Sequence record: SRR20825019_1298 | DNA length: 64,000 nt | Strand: one strand, 5' to 3' | Part shown: positions 1-2,628 of the stretch, in pieces | Position numbering within the stretch: the first letter of the stretch is position 1 | How the letters are laid out: every line of letters begins with the position of its first letter | Position numbers and translations under genes: made by a program | The notes under the pieces: model-generated | Database searches by the model: none | What the model was told of the DNA's origin: nothing | The model's input: the letters and a program-made list of their open reading frames with translations, nothing else

Positions 1-1710
1 GCCCGTAGCCACCTCATAGATAAAGTCATCATACGAGGTGTAAAAGCCGTTCAGTACAAAGCTAAATGGACCTGTCGCATAGTTGAAGGTGGCCTCTAAC
101 CCCAAGGCCGTTTCCAGGCCCAGAGTTGCATCGCCAAGCTCGTAGGCGCCCGTGGCAAGGTGGGGACCATTTGAAAACAGCTCTTCAGTTGAAGGCGCAC
201 GCTCAGTCCTGAACAGTGACAGCCCGACAAAAGCAGCGTCAGAGATATCATATCCAGCGCCCGCCGACAGGCTGATGCCATCAAAGGATCGCCCATCCTG
301 CTCTGATGTTACATCCTCGATAGTATATTTGGTGTGTTCATACCGTGCACCCGCCTCAAACTGCCACGCGCCCGCTGAGAAGTCTTTCACGCTATACAGG
401 CCGTATTGTGTACTCACTGTCGGAGGAACAAACGCTTCTTCGCCAATCGCAGAAAAATCACGACGTTTGATTTGAATGCCTGTTGCCCCGTTCCAGCGTT
501 CACCACCTTTCTCAATCAAATCCAAACGGCCTTCCCAACCTTCGTTGGAAAACACGGTACCAATTTCATCGCCTTCAAGCTCTGTGTGTTTATAATCGGC
601 ATATCCAAATCGAATTTTCGCCTTCTTGAACCAGCCGAAGTCACCATTGAACTCTCCATGCAGGTCATAGCGGATCTGGTCAAGGTCGATGGTCACGGCC
701 TCGTCGTCATGCTCGTCCTCGTGATCGTCGTGGTCTTCATCTTCGTCATGTTCTTCATCATGATGGTGTTCATGGCCACCGGGCACGCCGTAGGTGCTAT
801 CCATCTTGCGAACATTGAAACCAAAAAAACCATTGTCGAAAATGAAGCTCAATCCCGCAGAGCCGCCCTTGCTCTCTGTTGCAGAATTTTCGGCAATACC
901 GAAGACTTCCTCATCCTCGTGTTCTTCATGATCGTCATGGTCATCGTGTTCTTCATCTTCCTCGTGCTCATCGTGCTCTTCTTCCTCTAAAGCCCGAAAA
1001 GCCTCGGATTCTGCGAACCCAGGTATTTTGTAATCGTCGGTTTTGCGGTACATCGCATCACCGTGGAAAACGATATTTGCATCTCCAACACTGCCAATAT
1101 TCGCTGTAATGGCGCCCGTCACCTCATTGCCGTGGTTTACCGTGCTGTGCCCATAACGCACACCGCCATCTACACCGCCTTCCGGTACTGCAGTAGCGAT
1201 CCGGCCGTCAAACACGTTTACCACCCCGCCAGCGGCAGAGCTGCCATACATCAGCATGGCTGTGCCGCGAAGTATTTCGATCCGTTCCGCAAGCGCAGGT
1301 TCAACCGCTACAGCGTGGTCCGGGCTAGTTGACGAGGCATCTATTGATCCAATGCCTGCATCAAGCACCCGAATTCGGTCTCCACCCAGCCCCCTGATAA
1401 TTGGACGGCTGGCGCCGGGACCAAAAAAAGTTGACGACATACCGGGTTGGCGACGTAAAGTTTCGCCAATCGAACCGTCGAGCTGGCGAAGGATTTCCTC
1501 TTTGCGCATGACCGTCGCACCCAGGATCGTTTCTCCGAGCTTTCGCCCCTCAAACGCACCTGAAACTACGATCTCTTCAAGCTGTTCATCAAGTGGTGGC
1601 GCCAAAGCCAGCGTCCCTGTTGTCGGGACAGTGGCGAATGTCACCGCAACTGTTGCAAGCAGGCGTTTCTTGTTGTTGCGATATATTGATTTGATTATTT
1701 TACTGGACAT
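1..1710 (-). CDS. TonB-dependent receptor, ZnuD-like (zinc/metal uptake); 3' end runs off the window
   Basis: Manual translation from ATG at 1710 is open to base 1. Signal peptide, TonB box-like LEEIVVSG, plug motifs GPGASRPIIRG and RIEILRG..LMYGSSA.GGVVN, two His/Asp/Glu-rich inserts, later ERAPSTEELFSNGPHLATG typical of ZnuD-like receptors. SD-like CAGGA upstream. Confidence 0.92.
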   Translation of the reverse strand, partial: MSSKIIKSIYRNNKKRLLATVAVTFATVPTTGTLALAPPLDEQLEEIVVSGAFEGRKLGETILGATVMRKEEILRQLDGSIGETLRRQPGMSSTFFGPGASRPIIRGLGGDRIRVLDAGIGSIDASSTSPDHAVAVEPALAERIEILRGTAMLMYGSSAAGGVVNVFDGRIATAVPEGGVDGGVRYGHSTVNHGNEVTGAITANIGSVGDANIVFHGDAMYRKTDDYKIPGFAESEAFRALEEEEHDEHEEDEEHDDHDDHEEHEDEEVFGIAENSATESKGGSAGLSFIFDNGFFGFNVRKMDSTYGVPGGHEHHHDEEHDEDEDHDDHEDEHDDEAVTIDLDQIRYDLHGEFNGDFGWFKKAKIRFGYADYKHTELEGDEIGTVFSNEGWEGRLDLIEKGGERWNGATGIQIKRRDFSAIGEEAFVPPTVSTQYGLYSVKDFSAGAWQFEAGARYEHTKYTIEDVTSEQDGRSFDGISLSAGAGYDISDAAFVGLSLFRTERAPSTEELFSNGPHLATGAYELGDATLGLETALGLEATFNYATGPFSFVLNGFYTSYDDFIYEVATG

Positions 1711-1738
1711 GGTTGTTTCCTGTAACCCTGATTTACGG

Positions 1739-1770
1739 TGTTGACAGTGAGTCCTCTCACTGGGCCAACA
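1739..1770 (-). other. Intergenic stem-loop between RAPP leader and receptor
   Basis: Minus strand UGUUGG-CC-CAGUGAG-AGGA-CUCACUG-UCAACA: 13 bp with a 2-nt bulge and no U-tract. Confidence 0.7.
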
Positions 1771-1788
1771 AAACTGAATTTTCGGTAT

Positions 1789-2124
1789 TTAAAGGGGGGT
1801 TACAAAGGATGGCGGCGCGCGGATCGCACCAATGCTGTCAAGAAATATGCGGCTTAGGCTACGAAGCGCTATTACCCATGTCACCTGCTCATTTTCTGGC
1901 AGGATCAGGTTTGTGCTTTGGGGCTTAAGCGTTGGGGTTTGATCAGAAAATTTGCACAATGCACAAACACGGTCATAAGGCGCGTCGACCTCATGATCTG
2001 AAACGTGTGCGCTCGCTGCAGCTGTTACCACAAAATATGCAATAACCGCGAATAGCCGAATGCCGATTTGAAAGAATGAGCCCTGTCTCACTACCTGTCT
2101 CTTAACTCTGATTATAACGGCCAT
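1789..2124 (-). CDS. DUF2946-like leader / putative RAPP ribosome-arrest peptide (alternative GTG start at 2091)
   Basis: N-terminal hydrophobic segment, HxxxH, CALC (CxxC), RAPP near the C-terminus, directly upstream of a TonB-dependent receptor. Confidence 0.8.
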   Translation of the reverse strand: MAVIIRVKRQVVRQGSFFQIGIRLFAVIAYFVVTAAASAHVSDHEVDAPYDRVCALCKFSDQTPTLKPQSTNLILPENEQVTWVIALRSLSRIFLDSIGAIRAPPSFVTPL

Positions 2125-2206
2125 AAGTCAATTCAGGACTTACAGCAGCTCCGGCGCAGCAAATAGCCGCGCCAATCCCCAACTTAAATATTGTGGGGTA
2201 AAGTAA

Positions 2207-2530
2207 TCAGAGAGAGGGCGGGCCACGCGCGCTCGCGCACGCCTTGAATGATGGGCAAGGAACGGAAGCCGTATCGGCCACATAGAAAATATGCCAATCC
2301 GGTGCCGCGAGTTGAGCAACAGGTTTCGCTGCATCAACGTCCGGTGTGTGCTTGCAAGCCGTTGCAATGATGCAAGGGTGACCATCGTGGGTATGTTCGC
2401 TATCAGCAAAGGCCGCCGCATGCGCGCTTGCAATGAGCTGTGCCGCAACAAAAAGCATAGCCAGCCATGGGGCAACCCTCGTCAGACCCAAACGGCCAAT
2501 ACTGTTTTCTATGTTGCGCGGCGATTTCAT
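2207..2530 (-). CDS. DUF2946-like leader / putative RGPP ribosome-arrest peptide
   Basis: Signal or TM segment, EHTHDGHPCIIATAC His/Cys cluster, C-terminal ARGPPSL-stop. Confidence 0.8.
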   Translation of the reverse strand: MKSPRNIENSIGRLGLTRVAPWLAMLFVAAQLIASAHAAAFADSEHTHDGHPCIIATACKHTPDVDAAKPVAQLAAPDWHIFYVADTASVPCPSFKACASARGPPSL

Positions 2531-2571: not shown

Positions 2572-2600
2572 AATTTACGCTATAATATTACGCGTTTCAA
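2572..2600 (-). promoter_or_regulatory. sigma70 promoter with Zur-like operator in the spacer
   Basis: Minus strand TTGAAA-N17-TAAATT. The spacer contains GTAATATTATAGC (2579-2591), 2 mismatches from the Zur core GTTATAnTATAAC. Confidence 0.7.
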
Positions 2601-2628
2601 GCCTTAGTGAAATGCCCTAGAATCTGGC

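Follow-up and report, generated by a model that had tools for sequence, protein, structure and literature searches.

Two predicted arrest-peptide leaders in series as a probable translational on-switch before a ZnuD-like TonB-dependent receptor

Two small leader genes stand in series before a ZnuD-like TonB-dependent receptor gene in a 64,000-nt stretch of DNA from record SRR20825019_1298 (the window), and these arrest-peptide leaders probably form a translational on-switch for the receptor. The nucleotides that follow the arrest motif of each leader are predicted to pair with the Shine-Dalgarno region of the next gene, and it is probably the ribosome stalled at the motif that switches that gene on. 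The parts of the locus, all on the minus strand, are as follows.

1..1710, minus strand: TonB-dependent receptor, ZnuD-like (Pfam Plug and barrel domains), continuing past the window edge
1718..1728, minus strand: masked strand GGGUUACAGGA, including the receptor Shine-Dalgarno CAGGA
1739..1770, minus strand: inner 13-bp hairpin, which shortens the loop of the long-range helix
1789..2091, minus strand: leader gene 2, 100 aa, GTG start at 2091 (ORF list; the upstream RAPP ORF of the earlier sequence-only reading)
1797..1809, minus strand: anti-Shine-Dalgarno strand UCCUUUGUAACCC, the first 13 nt after RAPP
1810..1821, minus strand: RAPP codons CGC GCG CCG CCA of leader 2 (read from the sequence)
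1901..1960, minus strand: C-rich, G-poor stretch (C 0.32, G 0.12) in leader 2 (60-nt window composition)
2099..2114, minus strand: 3' strand of helix 1, UAAUCAGAG...AGAG, just upstream of and inside the leader 2 Shine-Dalgarno
2205..2217, minus strand: 5' strand of helix 1, CCUCUCUCUGAUU, comprising the last Pro codon, the tail codons, the stop and 2 more nt
2207..2530, minus strand: leader gene 1, 107 aa (ORF list), with a signal-like N-terminus, HxHDGHPCx5C and RGPP 2 residues before the stop
2216..2227, minus strand: RGPP codons CGT GGC CCG CCC of leader 1 (read from the sequence)
2572..2611, minus strand: promoter-like -35/-10 pairs and a near-palindrome overlapping them, upstream of leader 1 (consensus scan)

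Leaders, receptor and upstream region

The gene order, from promoter-like sites through leader 1 and leader 2 to the receptor, recurs in L002-L005, L007 and L120. The leaders thus hold the first-in-operon position before a TonB-dependent transporter that is typical of the DUF2946/CruR-CutF family, and 78 nt separate leader 2 from the receptor. In each, basic N-terminal residues precede a hydrophobic stretch that closes with ASAHV or ASAHA, and a crude count gave 13 of 15 hydrophobic residues there.

Leader 2 has a signal-like N-terminus, a CALC motif (1965-1954) and RAPP seven residues before its stop codon (1791-1789); its start was picked by homology, as L002 lacks an upstream ATG. The CxxC and the C-terminal RAPP are both features by which the DUF2946/CruR-CutF family is recognised. 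R-[AG]-P-P is invariant in all seven leader 2 orthologues, as is the first Cys of CALC, while the second Cys is absent in L007. The distance from CxxC to RAPP is 44 residues, and the family spacing given in the accessible part of PMC9426467 is 45 ± 1-2. The Pfam profile PF11162 (DUF2946) scores leader 2 at 15.9 bits (E 0.023), under its gathering cut-off of 23.7, and a scan of the whole genome with this profile at E<=1e-5 gave no match. In a profile-profile comparison, the leader 2 family aligned with 18 canonical DUF2946 members from CxxC to RAPP (47.6%, E 1.9e-4). With its motifs and the receptor downstream, leader 2 is related, though divergently, to the metal-sensing arrest peptides of the CruR/CutF (DUF2946) type.

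Leader 1 had no Pfam match but is a paralogue of leader 2 (hhalign 88%, E 2.9e-6); against the canonical DUF2946 profile it aligned at the RAPP tail only. Its metal motif, HxHDGHPC with a second Cys five residues on, lies 42 residues from RGPP. H46, H48, G50, H51, P52, C53 and R-x-P-P are kept among the leader 1 orthologues in 11 loci, five of which lack the second Cys, and R-x-P-P is invariant in the family alignment.

The receptor AUG lies at 1710-1708. His/Asp/Glu-rich loops are visible in the translation, and the top NCBIfam match is NF038289 ZnuD (E 1.2e-94), with 318 bits over the 570 residues inside the window and a curated cut-off of 950 bits that this portion does not reach. "ZnuD-like" denotes a resemblance and not a family assignment.

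Upstream of leader 1, the consensus scan found two overlapping sigma-70-like sites (2572..2611). A -35-like CTTGA and a palindromic GCTATAnTATAGC-type element, both read by eye, occupy the same place in six orthologous loci, and the near-palindrome is a possible repressor operator. Rfam gave no match at E<=1 across 1500-2750, which leaves no known riboswitch or leader family in that region. No intrinsic terminator was found between leader and receptor. The sole terminator-like site (1996-1973) sits inside leader 2 and was rejected, as shuffled sequences give as much.

Predicted helices from the leader tails to the next start

The sequence-only reading had proposed that the 13 nt directly following the RAPP codons (1821-1810) are an anti-Shine-Dalgarno strand that sequesters the ribosome-binding site (RBS) of the receptor. 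Reading of the minus strand confirmed this arrangement, in which 1809-1797 pairs with 1728-1718 through 8 bp, a 2-nt bulge and 3 bp, and the latter strand contains the CAGGA seven nucleotides before the AUG. The inner hairpin that it placed between the strands was also found, both in the sequence and in the predicted folds.

RNAfold of 1700-1830 (minus strand), the check that had been suggested, favoured the helix, which together with the hairpin was present in the MFE and centroid structures (-36.3 kcal/mol, z = -2.63, with 1 of 200 shuffles as stable). When 1795-1830 was removed, the Shine-Dalgarno was paired in nothing more than a weak local hairpin (-19.6, z = -0.85). All 11 helix pairs were kept in the MFE structure of a 249-nt context, and the helix was again in both MFE and centroid when the whole 561-nt leader was folded (z = -2.94; 0 of 100 shuffles). 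The pairing of the post-RAPP stretch with the receptor start (-24..+6) was matched by none of 271 non-overlapping 22-nt windows drawn from the last 240 nt of the leader gene and the intergenic region. By prediction, the Shine-Dalgarno is sequestered here as it is in switches of the SecM/MifM/VemP/CutF type.

The earlier reading also held that a ribosome stalled at RAPP covers the anti-Shine-Dalgarno strand and so opens the receptor RBS, an interpretation supported in those parts that computation can reach. A ribosome with Pro-Pro in the P and A sites, the arrest position reported for CruR in the accessible part of PMC12992588, would overlap one strand of the helix. The helix 5' strand lies at +1 to +13 after RAPP with its last few pairs past the footprint, and the ribosome would be expected to cover about 1809-1800. 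The claim therefore stands for 8 of the 11 pairs but not for all 13 nt, with CCC:GGG remaining. In the calculation, opening the receptor start took 13.0 kcal/mol, and still 8.3 kcal/mol once the stalled footprint was held single-stranded. However, a ribosome at the leader stop codon opens the helix too and does equally well (7.8 kcal/mol), so that stalling would prolong, rather than create, the opening brought about by ordinary translation.

A second helix (helix 1) is predicted between the tail of leader 1 and the start region of leader 2. Its duplex energy is -14.8 kcal/mol, with 2.7% of 292 far windows pairing equally well, and both the MFE and the centroid structure of the whole 561-nt leader contain it, together with the receptor helix. 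The far-window fractions for helix 1 are 0.027 in the window, 0 in L002, L004 and L005, 0.081 in L003 and 0.356 in L007; the same relationship is thus seen with different sequences in L002, L004 and L005, more weakly in L003 and not in L007. These folds suggest that leader 1 masks the leader 2 start region much as the receptor helix masks the receptor start, and that the two leaders may form a two-step relay.

Conservation and compensatory change across loci

Set 1, through which the receptor helix was followed, comprised 27 loci in which a homologous receptor is preceded by an R[AG]PP leader: six came from relatives' genomes and 21 from 80 screened loci, of which the other 59 lacked a credible leader and were left out. 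Also excluded were L006 (the same place as L035), L009 (near-identical to L007) and L008, where the R[AG]PP leader is missing. For set 1 the starts were chosen by eye, related loci are not independent, and sets 1 and 3 overlap partly (the values of L129 and L133 are those of L013 and L012).

In 13 of the 27 loci the 22-nt window after RAPP had no rival as a partner for the receptor start, and in 19, which include several unrelated lineages, no more than 5.5% of far windows paired equally well; pairing was unremarkable in the remaining eight. The globally best partner lay at most 8 nt from the end of RAPP in 13 of 27 loci and 8 of 13 clades. As a mismatched-locus control, strands were exchanged between clades, and a locus's own post-RAPP strand surpassed all those from other clades in 15 of 27 cases (mean z -2.3). 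Folds from RAPP-90 to start+60 placed at least 11 such pairs in the MFE structure in 19/27, whereas for control strands shifted by -30 or -60 nt the expected number of pairs exceeded five in 3/27 each.

Column-wise covariation (MAFFT) was dropped because the 5' strands of leaders with seven-residue tails and those with three-residue tails fall into different columns, and cross-locus duplex matrices were used in its place. The strands of the window and L002, both of the GUAAC type, pair with their own GGGUUACAGG at -14.9 and -17.4, but with GGGAAACAGG or GGGAUUCAGG of L003-L005 only at -8.4 to -11.2. Compensatory changes, which the sequence-only reading had named as a test in orthologues, were thus found, and on the evidence of these duplexes the receptor helix is conserved through compensatory change, including within the genus. 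Orthologues also have an inner hairpin at the same place, with differing sequences.

Among the 30 loci that passed the test, the 5' strand runs from a median of 0 nt to a median of +13.5 nt after RAPP and the 3' strand between medians of -21 and -8 relative to the start codon, and 73% of the paired 5' nucleotides on average fall no further than +10. The 5' strand therefore typically starts at the last Pro codon and straddles the front edge of a Pro-Pro-stalled ribosome. A strict footprint window (-18..+12) gave a much weaker signal (8/27 and 9/31 at <=0.05, and 0.479 for the window itself), since the helices extend a few nucleotides past the leading edge of the ribosome and are cut at +12.

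With starts picked by rule, nine of 23 canonical DUF2946 loci were at <=0.05 (seven of them at 0) and 14 were unremarkable; these counts are uncorrected, and the rule mis-picks starts in, for example, L097, L098, L101 and L115. Metagenome receptor homologues, also with rule-picked starts, gave 11/31 at <=0.05 and 20/31 unremarkable, with at least seven MFE pairs in 17/31. At a second RAPP-leader/receptor locus of the same genome, CCUCCAAACAG pairs with CUGUUUUGGAGG. Some close relatives use a local Shine-Dalgarno hairpin or the stall codons themselves instead. As far as these comparisons reach, the stall-site-to-RBS architecture is recurrent in independent lineages with unrelated sequences, and it is not universal.

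Mechanism, alternatives and relation to known systems

In the mechanism that we propose, each leader would encode a short peptide for export that carries a metal-binding motif of Cys/His type and, close to the C-terminus, R-[AG]-P-P. In free mRNA, about 13 nt from the last Pro codon would pair across the intergenic region with the next Shine-Dalgarno region, so that the next gene would be poorly initiated. Upon arrest with the Pro codons in the P and A sites, the mRNA channel would hold most of this strand and the helix would collapse, leaving the next start site free while the arrest lasts. Leader 1 (RGPP) would in this way unmask leader 2, and the receptor would in turn be unmasked by leader 2 (RAPP). 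If CruR, likewise a leader for an uptake receptor, is a guide, metal bound by the nascent peptide would release the arrest, in which case the receptor would be made only under metal scarcity. RAPP arrest at this locus, its modulation by metal, the identity of the metal and the direction of the response are points that we infer.

An attenuation mechanism of the CruR type, in which the RAPP-arrested ribosome blocks Rho loading, release leads to termination before the receptor and the helix plays a secondary part (it might, for instance, hold the receptor start untranslated and so let Rho act), seems to us an unlikely account of the locus. Rho-dependent termination has been demonstrated for the closest characterised DUF2946 RAPP leader before a TonB-dependent transporter, and the stretch at 1901-1960 in leader 2 resembles the C>G Rho-loading region proposed in cruR (both in the part of PMC9426467 available to us); the lack of an intrinsic terminator between leader and receptor also fits. 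Rho alone, however, leaves unexplained both the complementarity of the post-RAPP strand to the next start across unrelated sequences and the fixed position of that strand, and the intergenic region has 78 nt here but 162 nt in Bordetella pertussis. Rho attenuation and RBS unmasking are compatible and could act together.

The opening costs given above would equally suit plain translational coupling, whereby any ribosome finishing the leader opens the helix and RAPP is a constitutive pause or has another role in the peptide, and the helix strand takes in the tail codons, joined in many loci by the stop codon itself. We nevertheless regard this as improbable, given that R-[AG]-P-P never changes while the remainder of the C-terminal half is free to do so, that the CxxC-to-RAPP spacing of 44 matches the approximately 45 that matters for CruR regulation, and that RAPP is a demonstrated arrest motif in CruR (PMC12992588, accessible part). 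That the complementarity is fortuitous, or merely structural in the sense of RNA stability with no role in initiation, is very improbable: eight of the 27 related loci do pair unremarkably and the folds are predicted, but against this stand the 271 alternative windows of which none pairs equally well, the proximity of the best partner to RAPP in 13 loci and eight clades, the compensatory changes and the recurrence at a second locus of the same genome.

Among characterised systems, CruR and CutF come nearest to this locus. In the accessible parts of PMC9426467 and PMC12992588, CruR (B. pertussis Bp2923, DUF2946; operon cruR-bfrG(crtA)-bp2921) is a small exported leader, first in its operon, with a TonB-dependent transporter next. 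It shares with leader 2 a CxxC followed by a C-terminal RAPP a few residues before the stop, at a spacing of about 45 compared with 44. Its RAPP stops the ribosome with Pro-Pro in the P and A sites (PMC12992588) and is needed for downstream expression, and RAPP/RGPP leaders before TonB-dependent receptors are widespread (PMC12992588). The output of CruR is relief of Rho-dependent termination, and these parts of the papers describe no RBS-masking helix for it. The present locus differs from CruR in a leader under the Pfam cut-off, a ZnuD-like instead of a CrtA-family receptor, 78 instead of 162 nt between leader and receptor, and two leaders.

The DUF2946-like CutF of Rhodobacter capsulatus (PMC9973294, bioRxiv 10.1101/2025.02.05.636593) acts on cutO through a stall-opened stem-loop, but it carries CxxxC and a PPP-type motif rather than RAPP, and copper induces its stalling and switches on a detoxifying oxidase. 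Its stem-loop is described as an intergenic element, and the authors expected the mechanism to be confined to short intergenic regions, whereas here the tail of the leader itself, from the stall codons on, supplies the 5' strand and the helix spans the whole intergenic region. In SecM-secA, MifM-yidC2 and VemP-secDF2, a C-terminal arrest in an upstream ORF controls a Shine-Dalgarno-sequestering stem-loop, and the arrest motif of SecM, RAGP, is related to RAPP. These three monitor protein export, with the pulling force of the translocon releasing the arrest, while the target here is a metal-uptake receptor and the leaders have Cys/His motifs. In ApdA/ApdP, too, the upstream ORF carries RAPP, as an arrest motif, at its C-terminal end, but the accessible part of PMC7897499 gives a structure prediction without a hairpin sequestering the downstream Shine-Dalgarno, whereas for the present locus a helix of that kind is predicted, and it is conserved.

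Precedents thus exist both for a RAPP leader ahead of a TonB receptor (CruR) and for an RBS helix opened by stalling (SecM, CutF); new are the stall-site-anchored long-range helix in the RAPP-leader class and the tandem relay. Neither a stall-anchored anti-RBS for RAPP leaders nor tandem leaders are described in the accessible DUF2946/RAPP/CruR literature, of which the supplementary mRNA folds (Fig. S3, PMC9426467) may bear on the point, and a literature search combining arrest peptide, zinc and TonB-dependent returned no paper.

The conversion of arrest into expression has been worked out for only two members of the family, through Rho in CruR and through a stem-loop in CutF. The locus and its relatives offer a sequence-level rule, namely that the tail after the stall codons is the anti-RBS, which can be used to predict the true regulated start downstream of such leaders. 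More tentatively, CruR-type RAPP/RGPP leaders may commonly act via a helix between the leader tail and the next RBS, with translational unmasking a main output beside Rho, which would explain why the motif lies so near the stop codon. At the same tentative level, the Kordiimonas lineage may have put paralogous sensors (HxHDGHPC...C and CxxC) in series, such that both must arrest for the receptor to be made. With a ZnuD-like receptor as the target, one may ask whether such leaders sense metals besides copper. Tandem leaders would be a natural case of two nascent-peptide sensors in series and, if the proposal is true, would work as an AND gate with two inputs or sharpen the switch that controls metal uptake.

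Gene order and the predicted helix at the receptor start

In the window, two small ORFs, leader 1 (RGPP) and leader 2 (RAPP), precede a ZnuD-like TonB-dependent receptor.

Features upstream of and at the receptor start
4443-2629 (-): hybrid sensor histidine kinase/response regulator, ending 100 nt upstream of leader 1
2611-2572 (-): two overlapping promoter-like sites within the 100-nt gap between kinase and leader 1
2530-2207 (-): leader 1, a 107-codon ORF with the C-terminal end ...ARGPPSL*
2091 (GTG, start as placed here) to stop 1791-1789 (-): leader 2, end ...IRAPPSFVTPL*
1821-1810 (-): RAPP codons
1809-1797 (-): post-RAPP strand UCCUUUGUAACCC
1770-1739 (-): 13-bp hairpin
1728-1718 (-): receptor SD strand GGGUUACAGGA, with CAGGA 7 nt before the AUG
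1710-1 (-): TonB-dependent receptor, 78 nt after leader 2, running off the window

Plug and barrel domains are present in the receptor, whose top NCBIfam match is the zinc receptor ZnuD, at 318 bits far under the cut-off of 950. Two long His/Asp/Glu-rich low-complexity loops lie at about 700-1010 (-) (HDEHEEDEEHDDHDDHEEHEDEE and HEHHHDEEHDEDEDHDDHEDEHDDE) and differ in length among orthologues; such loops are shared with ZnuD-type zinc-scavenging receptors. The homologous loci L002-L005 have the same hybrid histidine kinase, with the same C-terminus, next to leader 1. At 2572-2611 (-), and at the same place in L002-L005 and the further homologous locus L007, a conserved CTTGA (-35-like) precedes a near-perfect GCTATAnTATAGC-type palindrome, which in the window reads GTAATATTATAGC and overlaps leader 1's -10-like hexamer. 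As a guess from its sequence, this palindrome is a candidate operator for a Zur/Fur-type repressor.

The sequence-only reading had proposed that the nucleotides directly after the RAPP codons mask the receptor SD and that a ribosome stalled at RAPP sets it free. Its coordinates for the RAPP codons, anti-SD, SD strand, hairpin and pairing (8 bp, a 2-nt bulge and 3 bp) all proved correct on the minus-strand sequence. RNAfold of 1700-1830 (-) returned exactly the claimed helix and hairpin as MFE and centroid at -36.3 kcal/mol (z = -2.63; equalled by 1 of 200 shuffles), and without the 5' strand the receptor SD was held by a weak local hairpin only. The helix was kept in a 249-nt context and, when all 561 nt of the leader region were folded, in both MFE and centroid (z = -2.94; 0 of 100 shuffles). 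The receptor start region finds no equally good partner among 271 other 22-nt windows covering the last 240 nt of leader 2 and the intergenic region.

Pairing after the stall codons in homologous loci

A leader 2 homologue was detectable in 9 of 61 relatives' genomes, and six of these loci have the same two-leader and receptor arrangement as the window. A scan of species-representative genomes with a receptor alignment gave 80 loci. In 21 of these a credible R[AG]PP leader immediately precedes the receptor; they belong to other Kordiimonas, Parvularculaceae, Hyphomonadaceae/Algimonas, Yunchengibacter, Thermoanaerobaculia (Acidobacteriota), Porticoccus (Gammaproteobacteria) and further groups. 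Together with the six above, this made 27 loci, in which the 22 nt from the last Pro codon were compared with the receptor start region (-24 to +6); start codons were chosen by eye, using homology and the SD.

In 13 of the 27 loci, the post-RAPP pairing had no equal among the far windows of the leader and the intergenic region; at most 5.5% of far windows paired as well in 19, and in 8 the pairing was unremarkable. The globally best partner window lies at most 8 nt from the RAPP end in 13 loci, with 8 of 13 clades represented. When loci were mismatched, the own strand was better than every other-clade strand in 15/27 (mean z -2.3). In folds from 90 nt before RAPP to 60 nt past the start, at least 11 of the helix pairs stay in the MFE in 19/27 loci, and control strands displaced by -30 or -60 nt gave more than 5 expected pairs in 3/27 each.

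The pairing strands are unrelated in sequence between clades (UUUGCUGAU with AUCAGCAAA; ACAAUAAAC with GUUUAUUGU; UCUCCUGA with UCAGGAGA; CCUAUAGCAC with GUGCUAUAGG), and thus complementarity rather than sequence is conserved. The window and L002 carry GGGUUACAGG after RAPP and the partner CUGUAACCC, and L003-L005 and the homologous locus L120 carry GGGAAACAGG, GGGAUUCAGG or GGGAUACAGG with the partner UUUCCUGA. Against the other kind of start region, window-type strands lose 4-9 kcal/mol of pairing energy; by duplex energies, the covariation suggested earlier as a check on the helix is found as a compensatory change within the genus.

The signal was weaker than in the 27 loci, yet clear, in independent sets with rule-picked starts. 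A canonical DUF2946 set comprised 30 loci from a phylum-wide sample (match in 41/301 genomes), of which 23 were analysable; no rival window was found in 7/23 and the fraction of far windows pairing as well was at most 0.05 in 9/23, counts that stand as the rule gave them, including several misses with visibly wrong start picks. Among metagenome receptor homologues, a leader was present at 31 of 80 loci, with 11/31 at or below 0.05 and at least 7 pairs kept in the MFE in 17/31. The same genome has a second RAPP leader outside the window (G000:C1:2592713-2593231 (-), equal to L200:3217-3732 (-)), with 23.2 bits to DUF2946, a HECDC motif and the tail RAPPAALQTA*. Its receptor (L200:1108-3162 (-), 685 aa, TonB-dependent, siderophore/PqqU-like type) lies 51 nt downstream, and the 11 nt directly after RAPP, CCUCCAAACAG, pair with the receptor's CUGUUUUGGAGG SD region (GGAGG).

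The direct stall-tail/RBS design is common, in roughly half to two thirds of loci, and not universal, because among close metagenome relatives the RGPP stall codons themselves (GGNCCNCC) pair with the SD region in L124 and L131, and the SD of L123 is locked in a local hairpin (CCCUCG...CGAGGG) that has no evident link to the stall site. The leader's own UGA stop lies inside the anti-RBS (..UCCUGA : UCAGGA..) in L003-L005, L028, L029, L098, L113, L115 and L120, where it appears to have a second, structural role.

Leader peptides and the proposed relay between them

Leader 2 has a basic, then hydrophobic N-terminus ending in ASAHV, and a CALC motif with RAPP 44 residues further on. Its match to Pfam DUF2946 is weak and sub-threshold (15.9 bits; cut-off 23.7); an alignment of 7 orthologues against 18 canonical DUF2946 proteins gave 47.6% probability (E 1.9e-4) over exactly the CxxC-to-RAPP part. 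Leader 1 has an invariant HxHDGHPC in place of CALC, matches DUF2946 in the RAPP tail only, and is a paralogue of leader 2 (88%, E 2.9e-6). The DUF2946 family includes CruR of B. pertussis and CutF of R. capsulatus. According to PMC9426467, CruR is a leader ahead of a TonB-dependent transporter in which CxxC and the C-terminal RAPP are both needed and the 45-residue spacing is important; the proposal there is that copper releases the arrest, whereupon Rho terminates. Small ORFs with RAPP or RGPP are generally over-represented ahead of TonB-dependent receptors, and translation of CruR in vitro arrests when the two Pro codons occupy the P and A sites (PMC12992588). Judged by these matches, the leaders of the window are probably divergent, unannotated cousins of the known CruR/CutF-type class. 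In Hyphomonadaceae/Algimonas-like loci (L020, L022, L023, L025, L026, L142, L143, L145), the leader ends in a doubled motif, RAPPPRAPP or RAPPPRGPP, representing two consecutive potential arrest sites.

The last-Pro strand of leader 1 (2217-2205 (-), CCUCUCUCUGAUU) pairs with 2114-2099 (-), directly upstream of and within the SD sequence of leader 2, and folding the whole leader puts both leaders' helices into the MFE as well as the centroid. With different sequences, this relay pairing recurs in L002, L004 and L005, where no far window equals it; the window (fraction of far windows pairing as well, 0.027) and L003 (0.081) show it less strongly, and it does not hold in L007 (0.356). Other Kordiimonas-like loci (L010, L011, L012, L121, L132, L133) have just one leader, which is of leader 1 type (HxH[DN]GHPC) and whose tail codons (A/V-H-A/V, then stop) pair with the receptor GUG start-codon region, not the SD. 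The two-leader form therefore seems to have arisen by duplication.

Proposed unmasking of the receptor start and its alternatives

Across the 30 loci passing the test, the 5' strand runs from a median of 0 to +13.5 nt after the RAPP codons and the 3' strand from a median of -21 to -8 before the start codon, and 73% of the paired 5' nucleotides on average lie within +10. From general ribosome footprints it is estimated that, when Pro-Pro occupies the P and A sites, about 10 nt past the A-site codon should lie in the mRNA channel. On this estimate, the proposal that the stalled ribosome covers the anti-SD stands for 1809-1800, with 8 of the 11 pairs, but CCC:GGG is left outside. The helices straddle the ribosome's leading edge and are not wholly inside, since the strict window of -18 to +12 does much worse (8/27 and 9/31 loci; 0.479 for the window itself). 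By computation, opening up the receptor start region (-18 to +12) costs 13.0 kcal/mol in free RNA; the figure falls to 8.3 when the stalled footprint is kept unpaired and to 7.8 when a ribosome sits at the stop codon. Translating the leader's end therefore opens the helix anyway, and arrest at RAPP would lengthen the time it stays open.

We regard arrest-controlled unmasking of the ribosome-binding site, twice in series, as the likely mechanism, in which arrest in leader 1 would unmask the start of leader 2 and arrest in leader 2 that of the receptor. By analogy with CruR, and by the logic of an uptake receptor, a metal would release the arrest. Chance complementarity is very unlikely, as the controls speak against it. 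Translational coupling that is unregulated would agree with the opening-energy figures but is at odds with the R-[AG]-P-P invariance and the conserved spacing, and we give it little credence. Rho-dependent attenuation as in CruR, with which a C-rich, G-poor stretch in leader 2 (1901-1960 (-)) is consistent, seems rather unlikely as the explanation; Rho may work in addition to unmasking, because Rho would readily act on a receptor message that is not being translated.

Each component has known counterparts: RAPP leaders ahead of TonB receptors in the CruR class, and SD helices opened by a stalled ribosome in SecM and CutF. Neither an anti-RBS formed by the leader's own tail from the stall codons nor a helix closing the whole intergenic region was found in the main-text literature on the class. 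The main text of Roy et al. (CruR) has no mention of SD or RBS, and its supplementary folds may bear on this; in the accessible text of Öztürk et al. (CutF), intergenic lengths alone were analysed and the mechanism was expected to need short spacers. No SD hairpin is predicted for the RAPP arrest peptides ApdA and ApdP in PMC7897499, whereas an SD helix is predicted in the window. Tandem leaders in series and a ZnuD-like target were not found in literature searches on arrest-peptide/DUF2946 leaders. A stall-anchored anti-RBS is not very surprising to a specialist; as a rule, that the stall tail is the anti-RBS is sharp and easily testable, and it bridges two published mechanisms.
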